IMG/VR virus record: IMGVR_UViG_2636415418_000006
Coordinates: 1-10,715 of that record
Length of the DNA: 10,715 bases
DNA from: a virus
Lineage: Duplodnaviria > Heunggongvirae > Uroviricota > Caudoviricetes
Reading direction: 5' to 3' (one strand)
Shown: positions 1-10,715 of the stretch, piece after piece
Layout: every line of letters starts with the position of its first letter
How positions within the stretch are numbered: position 1 is the stretch's first letter
Translations under genes and position numbers: made by a program
Notes under the pieces: model-generated
The model's database searches: none
What the model was told of the DNA's origin: nothing
Seen by the model: only the letters and a program-made list of their open reading frames with translations

Positions 1-633
1 TTATATTAATTCGTATAATTTGGCGTAGTCGATAAGCTCTACAATTGAATGCAAACCTAGCTTGCCATAAATATTAGATTTATGCGCACTAACTGTTTTA
101 TTGCTAAGTAATAACTTATCGGCAATTTCTTTATTAGATAATCCGCTAACCAGATAACGTAATATGGTCACTTCACGATTAGATAGCACAGTGATCGTTG
201 AACTATTCGTACTACATTTATTGCTTTTTATATAGTTAAGCGTTTCGCTAGGAAAAAACGTGTATCCGGAGAGGATCATCTGAACGGCATGAAAAATATC
301 ATTCTGATCATTGCATTTACTGACAAAACCGTTAGCACCAGCTTGTATCGCTCTGCCAGCATAAAAGCATTCTGATTTCGATGATAAAAATAACACTTTC
401 ACTGTGCTCTGGATTTGTTTGATCCTTTTCAGGAAGGTAAAACCGTCTGTTCCGGGCAAGTCTATATCCATAATGATTAAATCAACAGGACGGGTTCGGA
501 GATAATCGATGGTTATGCGGTAATCATCCGTTTTCAGGACAATCTGCAATTCACTGTTTTTTTGCAACAGAACTTCAATAGACATTCTGATGATAGGATG
601 AGTATCCATAATGATCACCGACGTTGGTTTCAT
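1..633 (-). CDS. fimZ: LuxR/NarL-family two-component response regulator FimZ (receiver domain plus C-terminal HTH)
   Basis: The minus-strand ORF 1..696 translates to a protein that matches, from MKPTSVIIMDTHPIIR onward, my recollection of E. coli FimZ (210 aa). The ATG at 631-633 gives exactly 210 codons; the ORF-track start at 696 is probably an upstream in-frame ATG. The stop codon sits at 1-3. Confidence 0.88.
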   Translation of the reverse strand: MKPTSVIIMDTHPIIRMSIEVLLQKNSELQIVLKTDDYRITIDYLRTRPVDLIIMDIDLPGTDGFTFLKRIKQIQSTVKVLFLSSKSECFYAGRAIQAGANGFVSKCNDQNDIFHAVQMILSGYTFFPSETLNYIKSNKCSTNSSTITVLSNREVTILRYLVSGLSNKEIADKLLLSNKTVSAHKSNIYGKLGLHSIVELIDYAKLYELI

Positions 634-816
634 AGTTACCAGTCTCATAGGAGCGGACAATTTTCCGTTAGGGCGGTAAATTGTACTTTGATACATGAAA
701 ATACGGGTTTTCTTGATTCAGACGCGCAGCGGTGTGCGTTTGTTTGCCACTATAGCGAAATAAATCAGAAAATCAGACGCGGTCGTTCACTTGTTCAGCA
801 ACCAGATCAAAAGCCA

Positions 817-3340: not shown

Positions 3341-3477
3341 TGTTTGAGTTTAATATGGCAGAACTTCTTCGCCACCGCTGGGGGCGTCTGCGCTTATATC
3401 GTTCCCCCGGTTCTGTTTTGACCGATTACCGAATACTGAAGAATTACGCCAAAACCCTGACAGGAGCAGGAGTATGA
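3337..3477 (+). CDS. ylcG: Small protein YlcG (46 aa), absent from the supplied ORF track
   Basis: The ATG at 3337 overlaps the rusA stop (ATGA). The translation [46 protein letters not shown] matches my recollection of DLP12 YlcG, and the gene sits in the same place as in K-12, between rusA and quuD. Confidence 0.6.
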
Positions 3478-3562
3478 AGTCAGAGATAACAATCAACTAA
3501 TACTGTTTTGTTGATTTTTGCTTGTAATTGGCGTTCTGGCCTGATTTTTGTGGAGTAAGTTG

Positions 3563-3946
3563 ATGCGTGATATTCAGATGGTTCTTGAGCGTTGGGGAGC
3601 GTGGGCGGCTAATAATCATGAAGATGTGACCTGGTCGTCCATTGCCGCCGGTTTTAAGGGATTAATTACTTCAAAAGTAAAATCTCGCCCGCAATGTTGT
3701 GACGATGACGCGATGATTATTTGCGGGTGCATGGCCCGTCTGAAAAAGAACAACAGCGATTTGCACGATTTATTAGTAGATTATTATGTAGTCGGTATGA
3801 CATTCATGTCACTGGCAGGTAAGCATTGCTGCTCTGATGGTTATATCGGGAAAAGGTTACAGAAGGCTGAGGGCATAATTGAAGGGATGTTAATGGCATT
3901 AGATATCCGGTTAGAGATGGATATCGTTGTTAATAACTCTAATTAA
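3563..3946 (+). CDS. quuD: Late-gene antitermination protein Q homolog (127 aa)
   Basis: [34 protein letters not shown]...DIVVNNSN matches DLP12 QuuD as I recall it. A GGAG Shine-Dalgarno lies at 3552-3555. The ORF-track start at 3548 is an upstream TTG in the same frame. Confidence 0.88.
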
Positions 3947-3979
3947 TATGCCAGTTGTTTACTAAAAATTATTAAAAAT

Positions 3980-3997
3980 GGGGCGTTGCAACGCCCC
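3980..3997 (-). terminator. Perfect 18-bp palindrome GGGGCGTTGCAACGCCCC flanked by A/T runs; candidate terminator for nmpC (minus strand), possibly bidirectional
   Basis: The hairpin and its flanks are read directly from the sequence. On the minus strand the stem is followed by ATTTTTAAT. It lies about 140 nt downstream of the nmpC stop. Confidence 0.4.
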
Positions 3998-4085
3998 CAA
4001 AAATAAAGGGTAATATATAACAGAAGGTTTATATAGTTAGAAGCAAGGTTGTGCTCCTAAAGGAAGTGGCTTGAGGGAGCCACTT

Positions 4086-4125
4086 ATATGTTGGGGAGGC
4101 AAAGCCTCCCGCAACATATCTTTTT
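4086..4125 (+). terminator. Rho-independent terminator (about 15-bp stem with one bulge, then CTTTTT); candidate tR'-like terminator of the Q-dependent late leader
   Basis: ATATGTTGGGGAGGC-AAA-GCCTCCCGCAACATAT is followed by TTTTT at 4121-4125, about 180 nt downstream of the quuD stop. This matches the lambda Q / pR' / tR' layout. A second hairpin (AAGTGGCT/AGCCACTT) lies at 4064-4085. Confidence 0.55.
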
Positions 4126-4135
4126 CGTAATCAGA

Positions 4136-5233
4136 TTAGAACTGGTAAACCAGACCTACAGCAACGATGTCATCAGTGCTTACACCGAGTGCTTTAGTGA
4201 AGTCATTTTTGTCAAGCAGGTTGATTTTGTAATCAACGAAAGTAGACATATTTTTGTTGAAGTAATAGGTTGCACCTACATCAACATATTTGACTAAGTC
4301 CTGATCGCCCCATACTCCAAGATCCTTACCTTTAGATTGCAGGTAAGCAACGGACGGACGCAGACCGAAATCGAACTGATATTGTGCAACAGCTTCGAAG
4401 TTTTGAGCTTTATTAGCAACGAAGTGATCAGCAAATACAGTCATATTCTGGGTTTCAGAATAGGTAGTGGCCAGGTAAATGTTGTTAGCGTCATATTTCA
4501 GACCTGCGGCCCAAACTTCTGCATTTTTACCGGAAGCAAATACTTCAGGAAGAACTTTCCCTGCATTAACTTGAGTGTCGGTACGATCAGATTTCGCATA
4601 AGTTGCACCGATACCGAATCCTTCGTATTCATAGGTAGCAGAGAAACCGAAGCCATCACCGTTACCTTCGGTGTAGTTATCGAAATCGCTACGATCGTTT
4701 TTGCCTTGGTACTGAGCAGCAAAGTTCAGACCATCAACCAGACCAAAGAAGTCGTTGTTACGATAAGTTGCAACACCAGTGGTGCGACCAGTCATGAACA
4801 CATCTGTTTGGGTCCAGGTATCGCCACCGAATTCTGGCAGAACGTCAGTCCACGCACCGATGTCGTATGCTACACCGTAGTTACGGCCGTAATCGATGGA
4901 GCCGTAGTCACCGAATTTCAGGCCAGCGAAGGCAAGACGGGTTTTATCTTTGGAGGAACCTTGAGATTCAGCGCGGTTGCCTTTGAATTCATATTCCCAC
5001 TGACCGAAACCAGTCAGTTGATCGTTGATTTGGGTTTCACCTTTGAAGCCAAGACGGGCATAAGTAGTATCACCATCATCTGCATCATTAGAGGAGAAGT
5101 AGTGCTTAGCATTAACTTTCCCGTACAGATCCAGCTTGTTACTGTCTTTATTATAAATTTCAGCTGCCTGAGCAGACATCGCCATCAGTACTGATGCAGC
5201 TACAGCAGAAATTGCCACTGTTAATTTTTTCAT
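4136..5233 (-). CDS. nmpC: General outer-membrane porin of the OmpC/OmpF/NmpC family (365 aa, intact, with signal peptide)
   Basis: The signal peptide [23 protein letters not shown] is followed by AEIYNKD, and the protein ends in the typical porin C-terminal F. It is full length, unlike the IS5-disrupted K-12 nmpC, and sits antisense between Q and the lysis genes exactly as in DLP12. Confidence 0.85.
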
Positions 5234-5806
5234 CGTGAGCCCTTTTTTTTGAACTATTATTAAAAAATGATGTCACTGCGCGATAAATATTCATCTAATC
5301 AATATGATTATTTCAAGATGTAAGTTTTGGTTTCTCGTTTGATTTGTGAAGTAGATCTCTATTTTTATCTGAACTTTTTTCTATCGAATCCTATTCATGG
5401 CTCTTGGCTGAATAAAAATAAATCTATTAGCCAATTTATATTAACGGTTGTTATTTATAAGTGCTCTATGATTTGAAGGTTCAATTTAAATCGGCTAAAA
5501 ATAACACTGGGAATTATTTGTTGGTTATTTGTTGAGATTTGCTTATGTATTTGTAGTGGTGTTTTCAATACTCGGTAGCATTCTCGCAAATATCATTTAG
5601 TGGTTTACGTACGTAAAAAATTGGTTATGCTGTTAAGAGTGGTTACTTCGTCACACAGCTTAAACCCGCCGTCGAGTGGGTTTTTCCATTTTTTGAGTCT
5701 CGATATTAGCTGATAACCCAATACCTGAGTTATTCACTGACTCCGAGTCTGTTACGTTTCGTAGTATTCCCTCAATTTACACCCGCTTTGTCTGCGAGGT
5801 GGGGTT

Positions 5807-5905
5807 ATGAAATCCATGGATAAGTTAACAACGGGTGTCGCCTATGGCACCTCAGCAGGTAGTGCCGGGTATCTGCATCATCGTCTGCCTGTCATGGGCT
5901 GTTAA
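5807..5905 (+). pseudogene. essD: Class I holin (lambda S / EssD-like), N-terminal 22 codons only, then frameshifted into Rz sequence
   Basis: [22 protein letters not shown] matches the EssD/lambda S N-terminus as I recall it. After that the frame reads [10 protein letters not shown] and stops, because the DNA from about 5873 is Rz coding sequence in another frame. Confidence 0.7.
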
Positions 5906-6293
5906 TCATTACCGTGATAACGCAATCGCCTACAAAGAGCAGCGCGATAACAAGGCCAGTGAACTGGAGAAGGCGAACGCCACCATCGCTGACATGCGGA
6001 AGCGTCAACGTGATGTAGCAGAACTCGACGCAAGATACACAAAGGAGCTTGCTGATGCTAACGCGACTATCGAAAGTCTCCGTGCTGATGTTTCTGCTGG
6101 GCGTAAGCGCCTGCAAGTCGCCGCCACCTGTGCAAAGTCAACGACCGGAGCCAGCGGCATGGGCGATGGAGAAAGCCCAGGACTTACAGCAGATGCTGAA
6201 CTCAATTATTACCGTCTCCGAAGTGGAATCGACAAGATAACCGCGCAGGTTAACTACCTGCAGGAATACATCAGGACGCAATGCCTGAAATAA
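5844..6293 (+). CDS. rzpD: Inner-membrane spanin subunit Rz (i-spanin) with a chimeric N-terminus; transmembrane helix [11 protein letters not shown] retained
   Basis: From [26 protein letters not shown] to the C-terminal QCLK the protein aligns with lambda Rz as I recall it. The first ~12 codons (MAPQQVVPG) come from holin DNA read in the Rz frame. The start at ATG 5844 (or GTG 5835) is uncertain. Confidence 0.7.
6055..6240 (+). CDS. rzoD: Outer-membrane lipoprotein spanin Rz1 (o-spanin), embedded in the +1 frame of Rz
   Basis: An AAGGAG Shine-Dalgarno at 6041-6046 lies 8 nt before the ATG. The protein has a lipoprotein signal peptide with lipobox GVSAC, a proline-rich mature part ([14 protein letters not shown]) and lies wholly inside Rz. 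This is the classic embedded spanin arrangement. Confidence 0.75.
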
Positions 6294-6324
6294 TTTTTTT
6301 GCTAATCACAAAGTCCATTTAATG

Positions 6325-6349
6325 AGCCTCGCGATGCGGGGCTTTTTTT
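6325..6349 (+). terminator. Rho-independent terminator after Rz/Rz1 (8-bp stem AGCCTCGC/GCGGGGCT, loop GAT, seven T)
   Basis: Hairpin plus T-run are read directly, 32 nt downstream of the Rz stop. Confidence 0.6.
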
Positions 6350-6498
6350 ACATCTGAATTTCACAGCGCATCTCACGCGCATATTACATCACCCGAGCCT
6401 TTCAGAAAGTTGAGCCTGAGAACTGCCGTATATGGTGGCGACCATCTCGGGGCGGCTTTTCTGTGAGACAGGCTCACTTTCTAAAAGGTAAAGACGCT

Positions 6499-6987
6499 AT
6501 GAACCAATTAGAAGAAAAGCTTCAAAGAATGATTTCCTTATACAAGGAAGATAACTGCCAAAAAGTTCCTGAAAACATCGCAGAGTTAATGGAATTGGCA
6601 AGTGAATTTTCTGGCATGCTTAAGTCGTCAGGTGTTCGGTCAGCGTTCTTTGTTGAAATGCTGATGCACGGCGGACTTATGGCAACAATGAGACGTGTAA
6701 TGGAAGACCAGAGAAAAGAACCTCCTCAGGTATACGTTTTGTCATCGAAGAAAACTGGGCTAACCAAAATTGGGTATTCATCCAACATTCCACAACGCAT
6801 CAAATCGCTTGGCAACTCTGGACCAGACTGCTTGAAGCTTGAGTGCCTGATCCCTGGTGGAAGAGAAACTGAAAACATGCTTCATCGCAAATTTGCCGCA
6901 AAGAGAAAGCACGGTGAATGGTTCGCCCTGTCCAAGGATGACATTGAGGGATTGAAATCTGTAGCGATTACTTCTGATGGCTATTAA
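6499..6987 (+). CDS. T5orf172 (GIY-YIG-like) domain protein of 162 aa: helical N-terminal region of unknown function plus C-terminal T5orf172 domain; moron in the slot occupied by bor in lambda
   Basis: The C-terminal half (VYVLSSKKTGLTKIGYSSNIPQRIKSLGNSGPDCLKLECLIPGGRETENMLHRKFAAKRKHGEWFALS) follows the T5orf172/MUG113 pattern (hydrophobic-Y-V-L ... KIGyT ... R ... E ... LH ... GEWF). An AAGG Shine-Dalgarno precedes ATG 6499. The DNA is unrelated to lambda at this position. Confidence 0.7.
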   Translation: MNQLEEKLQRMISLYKEDNCQKVPENIAELMELASEFSGMLKSSGVRSAFFVEMLMHGGLMATMRRVMEDQRKEPPQVYVLSSKKTGLTKIGYSSNIPQRIKSLGNSGPDCLKLECLIPGGRETENMLHRKFAAKRKHGEWFALSKDDIEGLKSVAITSDGY

Positions 6988-9460: not shown

Positions 9461-9814
9461 GTGGCTGATTTCGATAACCTGTTCGATGCTGCCATTGCCT
9501 GCGCCGATGAAACGATACGCGGGTACATGGGAACGTCAGCCACCATGACATCCGGTGAGCAGTCCGGTGCTGTGATACGTGGTGTTTTTGATGACCCTGA
9601 AAATATCAGCTATGCCGGACAGGGCGTGCGCGTTGAAGGCTCCAGCCCGTCCCTGTTTGTCCGGACTGATGATGTGCGGCAGCTGCGGCGCGGCGACACG
9701 CTGACCATCGGTGAGGAAAACTTCTGGATAGACCGGATTTCGCCGGATGATGGCGGAAGCTGTCATCTCTGGCTTGGGCGGGGCGTACCGCCTGCCGTTA
9801 ACCGTCGCCGCTGA
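9461..9814 (+). CDS. FII: Lambda head-tail joining protein FII (117 aa), GTG start
   Basis: MADFDNLFDAAIACADETIRGYMGTSATMTSGEQSGAVIRGVF...GRGVPPAVNRRR is near-identical to lambda gpFII as I recall it. A GGGAGG Shine-Dalgarno lies at 9451-9456. Confidence 0.88.
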   Translation: MADFDNLFDAAIACADETIRGYMGTSATMTSGEQSGAVIRGVFDDPENISYAGQGVRVEGSSPSLFVRTDDVRQLRRGDTLTIGEENFWIDRISPDDGGSCHLWLGRGVPPAVNRRR

Positions 9815-10715
9815 AAGGGGGATGTATGGCCATAAAAGGTCTTGAGCAGGCCGTTGAAAACCTCAGCCGTATCAGCAGAACGGCGGTGCCCGGTGCCGCC
9901 GCAATGGCCATTATCCTCGGTGGTTTGTTCTCCTTGTCGCAGAGCGCCGTGTCCTCACCGGCTTCCGGGAAATCCACATCTTTTTTGATTTCGCCACGCC
10001 CGCCCACCATGGTGGCAAACTCCATTAATACCGGACCGGCGGGAAACAGAAGCGATGCGCCGGCGCTGACGAGATCCATAAAACCGGCATTGCTTTCCGT
10101 CAGGGTGATAACAGCGTTCCCCCAGGCCTTCGCCAGTGGTACTGCTTTTTCCGCTGCCGATTCAAGCAGGTCAGTGGCAATATCACCCCATGAGGGTTCC
10201 CCCTGTGGGATTTCAGGTATTGCTCCAGGTGGGGGAGGAGGGGGAAGGGTGACGGCGGCCCTTGCAGCGGGCTTTCCGTTAATGTTTACATTTTCAGAAC
10301 CGGTATTGATGGCGCCGTCCGTGTCACAAAAGCTGTTTATCCATGATTCAAGCTGGTTCTGTTTCTCCTCCACATAATCACTCGCCTTATAGCTGGCATA
10401 CATCAGCGCAGGCACCAGAACCAGCGCATAAGGGCCGGTGGCGCAGGCGGCCATAATCAGGCAACCTTCTGCGATGGTCACTATCGCCCCCAGCACGGCC
10501 CCTGCCAGTGCCCCCAGAAAACTTTTATGCTGAATTTCATCGCCCAGCCTGGCGGCAGGTGGGCCGGACTTCTTTGCTGCCAGCATCTGTGCAATGGCTT
10601 TGTCGTTGGCTGCCCGTTTCATCTGGCTGGCGACCATCGCCTGCTGTGACAGCATTCGCATTGCCAGCGTACCGCCTGCGGTCGCTCCCTGTGGCCCGCC
10701 TGGTCCTTCACTCAT
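9798..10715 (-). CDS. Hypothetical membrane protein with a prePAAR-like motif (AARLGDEIQH), a two-helix hydrophobic hairpin, a PAAR-like motif (NVNINGKPAAR) and a poly-proline linker; candidate T6SS-type effector N-terminal module whose 3' end runs into antisense lambda DNA
   Basis: The long minus-strand ORF is GC-rich with E. coli-like codon usage. Residues 51-60 fit AARxxDxxxH, residues about 66-108 are hydrophobic (FLGALAGAVLGAIVTIAEGCLIMAACATGPYALVLVPALMY), and residues about 141-149 are GSENVNINGKPAAR followed by PPPPPP. The last ~40 codons (position 9912 and below) are antisense to lambda Z and FII, so the native C-terminus is missing. The start may be an internal ATG (10584-10586, MLAAKKSGPPAAR...). 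Confidence 0.5.
   Translation of the reverse strand: MSEGPGGPQGATAGGTLAMRMLSQQAMVASQMKRAANDKAIAQMLAAKKSGPPAARLGDEIQHKSFLGALAGAVLGAIVTIAEGCLIMAACATGPYALVLVPALMYASYKASDYVEEKQNQLESWINSFCDTDGAINTGSENVNINGKPAARAAVTLPPPPPPGAIPEIPQGEPSWGDIATDLLESAAEKAVPLAKAWGNAVITLTESNAGFMDLVSAGASLLFPAGPVLMEFATMVGGRGEIKKDVDFPEAGEDTALCDKENKPPRIMAIAAAPGTAVLLIRLRFSTACSRPFMAIHPPFSGDG
9826..9912 (+). pseudogene. Tail protein Z, first 29 codons only
   Basis: MAIKGLEQAVENLSRISRTAVPGAAAMAI matches the lambda gpZ N-terminus, after which the frame diverges into sequence that is antisense to the minus-strand gene. The remaining ~150 aa of the ORF-track entry 9826..10377 are not Z. Confidence 0.75.

Follow-up and report, generated by a model that had tools for sequence, protein, structure and literature searches.

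In phage lambda, the Q gene adjoins the constitutive late promoter PR'. Transcription from PR' terminates early, at tR' beyond the 6S RNA, and Q-dependent read-through leads into S, R, and Rz. Phages 933W and Sp5 have a Q933W-PR'-StxS-tR' cassette, in which the end of the 933W Q gene and PR' overlap (the gap is ~10 bp). In Sp5, the start identified by dRNA-seq and the 3' end identified by Term-seq are 258 nt apart (PMC7547250). Lambda's Q belongs to PF03589, which is unrelated to PF06530, the family named Q21/Q933W (bioRxiv 10.1101/651190).

In phage PA-2 and in the DLP12 (qsr') prophage, a porin gene (lc or nmpC) lies between Q and S, in the opposite orientation. The literature already covers the porin with its promoter and IS5 allele, the small RNA from its 3'UTR, and the DLP12 lysis cassette under Q control. 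The small RNA, IpeX, is 167 nt long and is processed out of the transcript of the DLP12 phage porin (PMC12197685; PMC5069750). [quoted passage not shown] Expression of nmpC is thermoregulated and is 16.5-fold higher at 37 C. According to work cited in PMC7918800, a Q-type antiterminator and RpoE control the DLP12 lysis operon.

We analyzed a 10,715-nt stretch of DNA (the window), which is a decayed DLP12-type prophage remnant of E. coli at argU. Our preferred explanation, to which we assign a probability of roughly 80%, is that the porin Lc/NmpC and IpeX form a reverse-oriented lysogenic-conversion cassette between Q and its own PR', and that late transcription starts beyond the porin.

The porin and the genes on either side of it

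The window contains an intact porin gene on the minus strand (4136-5233). Its product has 365 amino acids, with a signal peptide (MKKL...AQA/AE), a full-length Porin_1 domain (residues 29-365; E = 1e-156), and a C-terminal phenylalanine (YQF). It matches structures of OmpC and OmpK36 (E = 1e-135), and it is identical to Lc of phage PA-2 at 363 of 365 positions. Given also its antisense location between Q and S, this gene is the long-known phage porin Lc/NmpC of the OmpC/OmpF family. The flanks resemble those in PA-2 and DLP12 as well, and the AT-rich block upstream of the porin is nearly identical. Two claims of the first-pass annotation, that an intact antisense porin moron separates Q from the lysis genes and that nmpC of K-12 is disrupted by IS5, were both correct; in K-12, IS5 is inserted 58 bp before the stop codon. 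Like the lambda morons bor and lom, the porin gene is accessory, brings along a promoter and a terminator, is expressed from the prophage, and has a lower GC content than its neighbors. Unlike them, it sits between Q and PR', and the cassette adds a regulatory 3'UTR RNA.

On the Q side is quuD (3563-3946, plus strand), which starts at ATG 3563 or TTG 3548. QuuD belongs to PF06530 (E = 3.5e-53), is 78% identical to Q of 933W, and is a distant match to the structures of Q21 (6jnx and 6p18). When quuD is aligned with related Q genes, the homology stops at ~3925, which places the stop codon and the ~7 codons before it in an inserted block. Compact Q-PR' cassettes, for example that of 933W, lack this porin block (3926-5603), and other phages have unrelated inserts in its place. 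The left junction of the block comes from the alignment of the 3' ends of Q genes, and the right junction is at the -35 box of PR'.

On the other side, the holin start (ATG 5807, with a second start at 5816) is where the first-pass annotation had placed the lysis genes. These genes are only partly there. Translation and alignment to K-12 show that essD' (5807-5905, plus strand) retains ~21 native codons up to a junction at ~5870/5871, runs on out of frame, and stops after 32 codons; RefSeq lists it as a pseudogene. A deletion of ~680 bp has taken out the endolysin and fused codon ~21-22 of essD to Rz. The open reading frame for the Rz-type spanin (5835-6293, plus strand; Pfam Phage_lysis, E = 2e-39) has Rz1 embedded within it at 6049-6240. 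With the holin cut and the endolysin gone, the lysis genes in the window are a remnant, and the Q circuit has no target here. The lysis cassettes of PA-2 and K-12 are complete. The first-pass annotation had overlooked both this deletion and the nature of the spacer between quuD and nmpC, which we discuss below. In favor of our preferred explanation, the plaque-forming phage 434B carries the Q, late promoter, and lysis segment of DLP12, with IS5 inside the porin.

The AT-rich region and the late promoter module

The first-pass annotation described a 570-bp AT-rich block before the holin. Its GC content is not uniform. The description is accurate for 5234-5603 (29.7% GC) and does not apply to 5604-5806 (42.9% GC), which includes a conserved promoter and terminator module. 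The suggestion that the AT-rich block carries the porin promoter agrees with the published PnmpC (PMC11677980), whose regulatory region corresponds to 5234-5443 on the minus strand (-1 to -210 from the ATG; 28% GC). At its threshold, our promoter scan reported no sigma70-like site in the AT-rich block, so we take the location of PnmpC from the literature. The first of the CAP sites in the annotation of the PA-2 record corresponds to 5342-5362. The other "CAP site" in that record, from 1986, corresponds to 5638-5658. We rejected it as a CRP site for the porin because the sequence is kept in phages that lack the porin; the left half of this site is also a poor match to TGTGA. As for H-NS, we found 12 matches to its motif in the AT-rich block where 14 were expected, so there is no enrichment, and one site at 5280 has two mismatches. 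Given the AT richness of the block and the thermoregulation of nmpC, targeting by H-NS is a plausible guess and no more.

The module begins with a homolog of PR' on the plus strand (5604-5637), with TTTACG (5604-5609) as the -35 box, TATGCT (5626-5631) as the -10 box, and a predicted start at A 5638. Next is a strongly conserved core, TAAGAGTGGTTACTTCGTCACACAGC (5634-5661, plus strand), which is common to all 83 unique variants of the module that we collected; its first 13 bases served as the search pattern and so could not vary. This core is likely to be the region of Q loading and pausing, and the annotated qut of 933W falls within the homologous segment. The last conserved element is a tR'-like hairpin, AAACCCGC/GTGGGTTT, with a T-run (5662-5695, plus strand). 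The terminator scan identified it as the only terminator before S, and conservation stops just past the T-run. Overall, 5603-5685 matches the annotated pR', qut, and terminator of 933W. The promoter is thus homologous to the experimentally mapped PR' of the family and is followed by an intrinsic terminator.

The predicted start is consistent with the data from Sp5. In Sp5 of strain Sakai, the distance from the predicted start (7 nt past the homologous -10 box) to the last T of the second terminator is 258 nt, inclusive, which equals the distance between the mapped ends. On the other hand, the mapped 3' end in Sp5 is at the second terminator, 258 nt downstream, and not at the conserved hairpin, which counts against our preferred explanation. 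So do two features of the module itself. The -10-like sigma pause element in the core is unconvincing: it is TACTTC here and TACATT in 933W, with no clear TANNNT. And the hairpin (about -10 kcal/mol) is weakened by a G-U pair where K-12 has G-C.

The unit does not immediately follow Q. It lies ~1.66 kb past the stop codon of quuD and ~110 nt before the start of the holin, an interruption of the cassette that is shared by many relatives. In comparison to 933W and Sp5, the -35 box, the -10 box, and the first ~50 transcribed nucleotides, including the hairpin and the T-run, are homologous, but here 1.66 kb of reverse-oriented cassette intervenes between Q and PR'. The cassettes also differ downstream: in 933W, the second terminator at +258 is followed by sense-oriented cargo (tRNAs and stx), while here S is ~110 nt past the hairpin.

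We predict that QuuD would act in trans on RNA polymerase that started at ~5638, and would allow it to read through 5662-5695 into the late genes, by the same logic as in lambda. We infer the start site, the dependence on Q, and the termination at 5662-5695 from homology. If transcription starts at ~5638, then Q-dependent late transcription would begin past the porin and head away from it. As far as the sequence can tell, late transcription probably need not cross the porin. The porin itself would be transcribed leftward during lysogeny, with the AT-rich block supplying a sigma70 promoter of its own.

A different start has been published for the lysis operon. The primer coordinates of the reporters in PMC7918800 put a +1 at ~5282, just after TGAACTA-N16-TCACT, and we infer from these coordinates that the sigmaE-type promoter essDp (GAACT...TCACT) is at 5250-5282 on the plus strand. 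This published start is an observation against our preferred explanation. The Q-responsive lysis promoter could then be essDp, 49 bp from the nmpC ATG, with 5604-5695 as a mere leader terminator. In PMC7918800, the regulatory region runs from -121 to +650 (with Rueggeberg 2015 as its source), and the control by a Q-type antiterminator and RpoE that the paper cites would fit. But the essDp site is in porin-cassette DNA that most phages with the same family of Q do not have, so it cannot be the Q target of the family. Also, loading of Q21-family proteins requires a sigma70 complex that is paused beside the Q-binding element (bioRxiv 10.1101/651190). The cited fragment includes the 5604-5695 module as well, so the reporters do not discriminate between the two sites. 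We consider essDp to be an unlikely site of Q action.

The spacer between quuD and nmpC

The first-pass annotation reported that the quuD stop is followed by about 180 nt with an 18-bp palindrome and a hairpin with a T-run, and this holds. The spacer is 189 nt (3947-4135) and has four differences from the corresponding sequence of DLP12 in K-12. The palindrome, GGGGCGTTGCAACGCCCC (3980-3997), is perfect and is the only such palindrome in the window. Its T-run (ATTTTTAATAATTTTT) is on the minus strand, and the terminator scan scored it as a minus-strand terminator. In K-12, the loop is GAGA instead of GCAA, which makes the "perfect" palindrome one allele of a hairpin whose stem is 7 bp and whose loop is 4 nt. 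Together, the scan, the fold (-13.9 kcal/mol), and the palindrome check identify 3964-3997 on the minus strand as the intrinsic terminator of the nmpC/IpeX transcript, with the palindrome as its stem and the T-run going from 3979 down to 3964.

Read on this strand, the spacer is the structured 3'UTR of nmpC, and it fits the published IpeX. From the nmpC stop codon (4138) to the T-run (~3972) is ~167 nt, which matches the length of IpeX, and this equivalent of IpeX (3972-4138, minus strand; ends approximate) has five stem-loops and a folding z-score of -8.0. As in DLP12, it adjoins the 3' end of nmpC, shares the strand of that gene, and extends to an intrinsic terminator. At the level of sequence, what is shown is near identity to the K-12 locus; the terminator loop differs, as described above. 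We looked for covariation in 35 unique variants of the IpeX region and found no compensatory pairs, as the divergence is too low, so the argument for the structure is its folding energy. With Rfam (E ≤ 1), the only hit in the window was tRNA-Arg, and no family matched the spacer, the IpeX region, or the PR' leader.

The other structure is a hairpin at 4086-4119 on the plus strand, followed by CTTTTT to 4125 (-22.7 kcal/mol; z = -6.1). We read 4086-4125 as a terminator of rightward (nin/Q) transcription. On the other strand, the same sequence is the first stem-loop of IpeX. The first-pass annotation took this hairpin to be tR' and had Q-dependent late transcription running antisense through nmpC. 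Under that proposal, PR' would be right after quuD, as in lambda, Q-modified polymerase would cross the porin, and Q and the porin would interfere with each other. The textbook cassette does have PR' next to Q (bioRxiv 10.1101/651190), and the spacer does have a strong plus-strand terminator ~140-180 nt past the Q stop. There is even a weak candidate promoter (TTGCAA at 3986-3991, a 19-nt spacer, and TAATAT at 4011-4016). However, no sigma70-like site in 3947-4135 passed the threshold of the promoter scan. The core motif of PR' occurs once in the window, within the module, and is absent from the Q-proximal spacer. Similarly, an nhmmer profile of the 83 unique modules has a single match in the window (5598-5696; E = 1.8e-28) and none in 3947-4135. 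Thus, the qut-like element or promoter that was expected downstream of quuD was not found in 3947-4085 by any of the three approaches, and, lacking a PR' upstream, 4086-4125 was rejected as tR'. It is not the counterpart of lambda's tR'; the late promoter module of the family is on the far side of the porin.

Published reporters and other phages point the same way. The DLP12 lysis-operon reporters, as mapped from the primers in PMC7918800, cover ~5161-5928. They leave out the spacer and include the module, and they served as the regulatory region of the lysis operon. Among phage records, the spacer was present in only 36, the same number that contain the whole AT-rich block on the porin side, while the promoter module was present in 355. 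Since the spacer occurs only where the porin-side block does, it travels with the porin and not with Q. And where a related Q is followed by some other insert, the common parts are Q and the downstream module only. A lambda-like arrangement of PR' in the spacer is therefore highly improbable.

Under our preferred explanation, the porin transcript would end at the palindrome terminator, with its last ~167 nt giving rise to IpeX, and the rightward quuD transcript would stop at 4086-4125. The two terminators would close the cassette on the Q side, back to back. Because they are convergent, each transcript would pass the other's terminator. The quuD mRNA (ending at 4125) and the nmpC/IpeX RNA (ending at ~3972) would overlap by ~150 nt with full complementarity, and they might affect each other's stability or termination. 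Also, in intact relatives, N-antiterminated early transcription could continue into the porin and cross it antisense, a point that counts against our preferred explanation as well. But this remnant lacks N and pR, and when an rrnB terminator was placed in the nmpC/quuD spacer of K-12, it had little effect in the only assay reported, which was of IS5 transposition (PMC11677980). Interference at the 3' ends seems rather improbable, with somewhat better prospects than the two alternatives above.

The Q-PR' junction in other phages

A search for related loci with QuuD found 79 loci with an identical Q and one at 99% identity. Given this lack of diversity, we substituted a DNA-pattern scan for the PR' core. 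At 182 of the 205 loci with the core, a QuuD/Q933W-type Q is upstream on the same strand. The gap between Q and the core at these loci is either 0-40 bp or 400-3,000 bp, and it is filled with unrelated DNA. The revised reading is useful for annotation. In phages with Q21/Q933W-type Q, the search for the late promoter should be guided by the conserved module instead of the distance from Q, and tR' should not be the default label for a hairpin past Q.

The cargo at these junctions includes porins, lipoproteins, candidate defense genes, and many sets of two unknown genes. Of the other inserts, PADLOC and Pfam could name just a few: PDC-S20, an HNH/PDC-M68A protein, and NA37.

We tentatively propose, at slightly less than even odds, that the Q-PR' junction in lambdoid phages of the Q21/Q933W type is a dedicated slot for reverse-oriented accessory cassettes, with the porin and IpeX as the founding example. 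The cargo would be expressed during lysogeny and spared head-on late transcription, since transcription from PR' heads away from the slot and the Q side is shut off by terminators; such closing terminators were seen for the porin cassette only. If the rule is general, it would explain how the timing of late genes is undisturbed despite such cargo, and it would make cargo that is expressed in lysogeny, new defense genes among it, simple to find in thousands of E. coli prophages. The stx genes are the contrasting case: they are sense-oriented cargo past PR', and they depend on Q.

The prophage remnant and its porin gene

At the argU tRNA gene, the window contains a DLP12-type prophage that is short and decayed. 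After fimZ (1-696, minus strand) and tRNA-Arg(TCT) (876-952) come fragments of integrase, exonuclease and methyltransferase genes, then ninE, ninX, rusA, ylcG, quuD, the porin gene and a lysis remnant. Further right lie a GIY-YIG nuclease gene, ybcV/ylcI-like genes, packaging and head fragments, and an Rhs/VgrG island. The nuclease gene (6463-6987, GIY-YIG/T5orf172 type) lies just after Rz, in place of the borD of K-12 DLP12. At the end of the remnant, a tail-gene fragment abuts a truncated Rhs gene and the VgrG island (9798-10715), so the right end of the prophage has been replaced. Positions 3400-6400 are 100% identical to E. coli W21. Of 5426 complete E. coli genomes, 2283 have a match that covers at least 80% of this stretch, as do 35 phage records.

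The elements described in the first-pass annotation are all there: the end of quuD (3946), a 189-nt spacer (3947-4135) with a palindrome and a hairpin plus T-run, a 365-aa porin on the minus strand (4136-5233), and the holin start (ATG at 5807). The porin domain is complete, and the protein is identical to Lc of phage PA-2 at 363 of 365 positions. In K-12 DLP12, nmpC and both its flanks are nearly identical to the window's, but the gene is interrupted by IS5, as the annotation had stated; the element lies 58 bp before the stop codon. The same Q-porin-S arrangement is found in the viable phages ev099, ev243, mEp332, the PhiR series, and 434B, which took up a DLP12 segment with IS5 still within the porin.

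The lysis cassette in the window is dead. The essD (holin) frame stops after 32 codons, and this stub is a pseudogene in the RefSeq annotation of an identical genome. Relative to K-12 DLP12, a deletion of ~680 bp runs from essD codon ~21-22 to the beginning of Rz and takes the endolysin gene rrrD with it. The deletion junction (~5870/5871) shows TA microhomology; the affected stretches are 5807-5905 and 5835-6293. In seven more genomes (H2, H3, H5-H8, and W21 itself), the 3001-bp match is likewise undivided and has no rrrD beneath it.

Upstream of the porin, the annotation had described an AT-rich block at 5234-5800. Positions 5234-5603 are indeed AT-rich (29.7% GC), but the last 200 bp are 43% GC and contain a conserved module. 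That the block carries the porin promoter agrees with published work: PnmpC function is lost when -199 to -1 (from the nmpC ATG) is deleted, and a second construct replaced -210 to -1 (PMC11677980). PnmpC, whose start was confirmed by 5'-RACE, is of the sigma70 type and carries two CRP sites as well as OmpR, IHF, and MprA sites (PMC11677980). The nmpC transcript level increases 16.5-fold when the temperature is raised from 23 to 37 C. A motif search found no enrichment of the H-NS motif in the block; control by H-NS is plausible.

A homolog of the late promoter beyond the porin

The first-pass annotation proposed that late transcription would have to run antisense through the whole of nmpC, and suggested a search for a qut-like element downstream of quuD. 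The conserved module probably places the late promoter elsewhere. QuuD (3563-3946, plus strand) is a member of Pfam PF06530 (E = 3.5e-53). It shares 78% identity with Q of 933W and matches the Q21 structures distantly. Proteins of this type form the Q21/Q933W family, in the naming of the Ebright group, whose mechanism involves loading of Q at a sigma70 pause (bioRxiv 10.1101/651190).

When we used the nmpC-essD intergenic region as the query, 355 phage records matched, and only 36 of these covered the whole region. Most of the others match only 5603-5685, which is the site of the annotated pR', qut, and first terminator of 933W. In the alignment of the window to 933W, a -35 box (TTTACG) and a -10 box (TATGCT in the window, TATCAT in 933W) are 16 nt apart, followed by the common run TAAGAGTGGTTAC..CAC.CAG and a hairpin with a T-run. 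A profile of 83 unique modules has one match in the window (5598-5696, E = 1.8e-28) and none in the Q-proximal spacer, and the 13-nt core has a single occurrence in the window with up to two mismatches allowed. Conservation among the modules begins ~25 nt ahead of the core and ends sharply past the T-run.

The start site can be predicted from Sakai Sp5, whose PR' region is identical to that of 933W. In Sp5, the primary PR' start is 258 nt from the 3' end of tR' (PMC7547250). The Sp5 sequence from the A that lies 7 nt past TATCAT to the last T of the second terminator is also 258 nt, inclusive. This agreement implies that the mapped promoter is homologous to 5604-5631 of the window, and the PR' start would be A5638. 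The argument from spacing is independent of the offset between two Sakai RefSeq versions, which we presume from the stx2A coordinates.

Sp5 has a conserved hairpin with seven Ts at +26 to +48, and its mapped 3' end is at the second terminator, at +258 (positions 671-693 and 868-903 of our Sp5 locus, L089). Either the mapping missed very short RNAs or the first hairpin does something else. In DLP12-type loci, no second terminator precedes S. The window's hairpin (5662-5695) has a G-U pair where K-12 has G-C. The window's transcribed core holds no clear -10-like pause element, with TACTTC where 933W has TACATT. In the 1986 record for PA-2 (J02580), the second annotated "CAP binding site" (1730-1750) corresponds to 5638-5658 and coincides with the PR' core. 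The CAP assignment is probably wrong, as the core is conserved in phages that lack the porin.

A sigmaE-type essD promoter has also been published. The regulatory region of the lysis operon was given as a fragment from "-121 to +650", and control by a Q-type antiterminator was cited as well (PMC7918800, with the fragment attributed to Rueggeberg 2015). The primers map to ~5161-5928 (768 bp in K-12), which puts the +1 near 5282, and this position is preceded by a sigmaE-like TGAACTA-N16-TCACT. The fragment includes the module at 5604-5695 and excludes the Q-proximal spacer, which counts against a late promoter next to quuD, but its contents do not distinguish the sigmaE start from the PR' homolog. 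Because the site lies in porin-cassette DNA that is absent from most phages with this family of Q, we consider it an extra promoter at most. The site (5250-5282) is 49 bp from the nmpC ATG, inside the region published for PnmpC, and is oriented the opposite way.

We favor the PR' homolog at 5604-5631, which is past the porin. Late transcription would start at 5638, QuuD would override a terminator at 5662-5695, and quuD transcripts would end at 4125. With this layout, late transcription would never need to cross the porin. The arrangement as first annotated is known biology (Lc/nmpC in qsr'/DLP12, IS5 in K-12, PnmpC, IpeX, and control of the DLP12 lysis cassette by Q). What we correct is the layout: the Q/PR' cassette is split, with PR' beyond the porin.

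Inserts between Q and PR'

We searched IMG/VR for the core and combined these matches with our existing set of loci. A QuuD/Q933W-type Q lies upstream on the same strand in 182 of 205 core-bearing loci, and in most of the other 23 the upstream DNA is too short. From the Q stop to the core there are 0-40 bp in 25 loci; the other distances fall into about twenty size classes of 400-3000 bp. Q from 933W, PhiR40_1, and the window can be aligned up to ~3925 and diverges beyond it. Similarity resumes at the -35 box, so the stretch in between (3926-5603) was inserted between Q and PR', and it includes the 189-nt spacer. This spacer is present in 36 phage records only, as many as contain the whole porin-side AT-rich block.

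We excluded the 400-bp class, whose ORF is a second Q gene, which left 18 classes of insert (0.6-3 kb; 31 to 45% GC). In 15 of the 17 classes other than the porin (from loci L004, L008, and L093-L196), the minus strand carries the main ORFs; with the porin, the figure is 16 of 18. The other cargo includes a PDC-S20 KAP-type NTPase, an HNH protein (PDC-M68A), pairs with NA37 domains, lipoproteins, and several unknown two-gene sets. This by-product of the analysis may be less familiar; a shallow search of the literature found no statement of a rule for reversed inserts.

A probable IpeX equivalent and the convergent terminators

The sequence 3980-3997 (GGGGCGTTGCAACGCCCC) is a perfect 18-bp palindrome, the only one of its kind in the window. 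Its T-run is on the minus strand, which makes it a leftward terminator. On the plus strand, a hairpin at 4086-4119 is followed by CTTTTT (-22.7 kcal/mol predicted, z = -6.1), and the likeliest role of 4086-4125 is to stop rightward transcription that has passed through quuD.

The minus strand of the spacer is the 3'UTR of nmpC. It is predicted to fold into five stem-loops (-64.2 kcal/mol, z = -8.0) and ends in the palindrome's hairpin and then AUUUUUAAUAAUUUUU, with ~167 nt from the nmpC stop to this T-run. [quoted passage not shown] The spacer has four differences from the K-12 locus, three of them in hairpin loops. The position, length, and near identity of the 3'UTR fit an equivalent of IpeX. 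No Rfam model matched the spacer, and the 35 unique copies vary too little for a covariation test of the structure.

Within 3964-4125, the quuD and nmpC/IpeX transcripts would each pass the other's terminator. As for the suggested interference between Q and the porin, what is left is the hypothesis that these convergent transcripts overlap by ~150 nt, with fully complementary 3' ends. Also, N-modified early transcription might read into the porin in intact phages.
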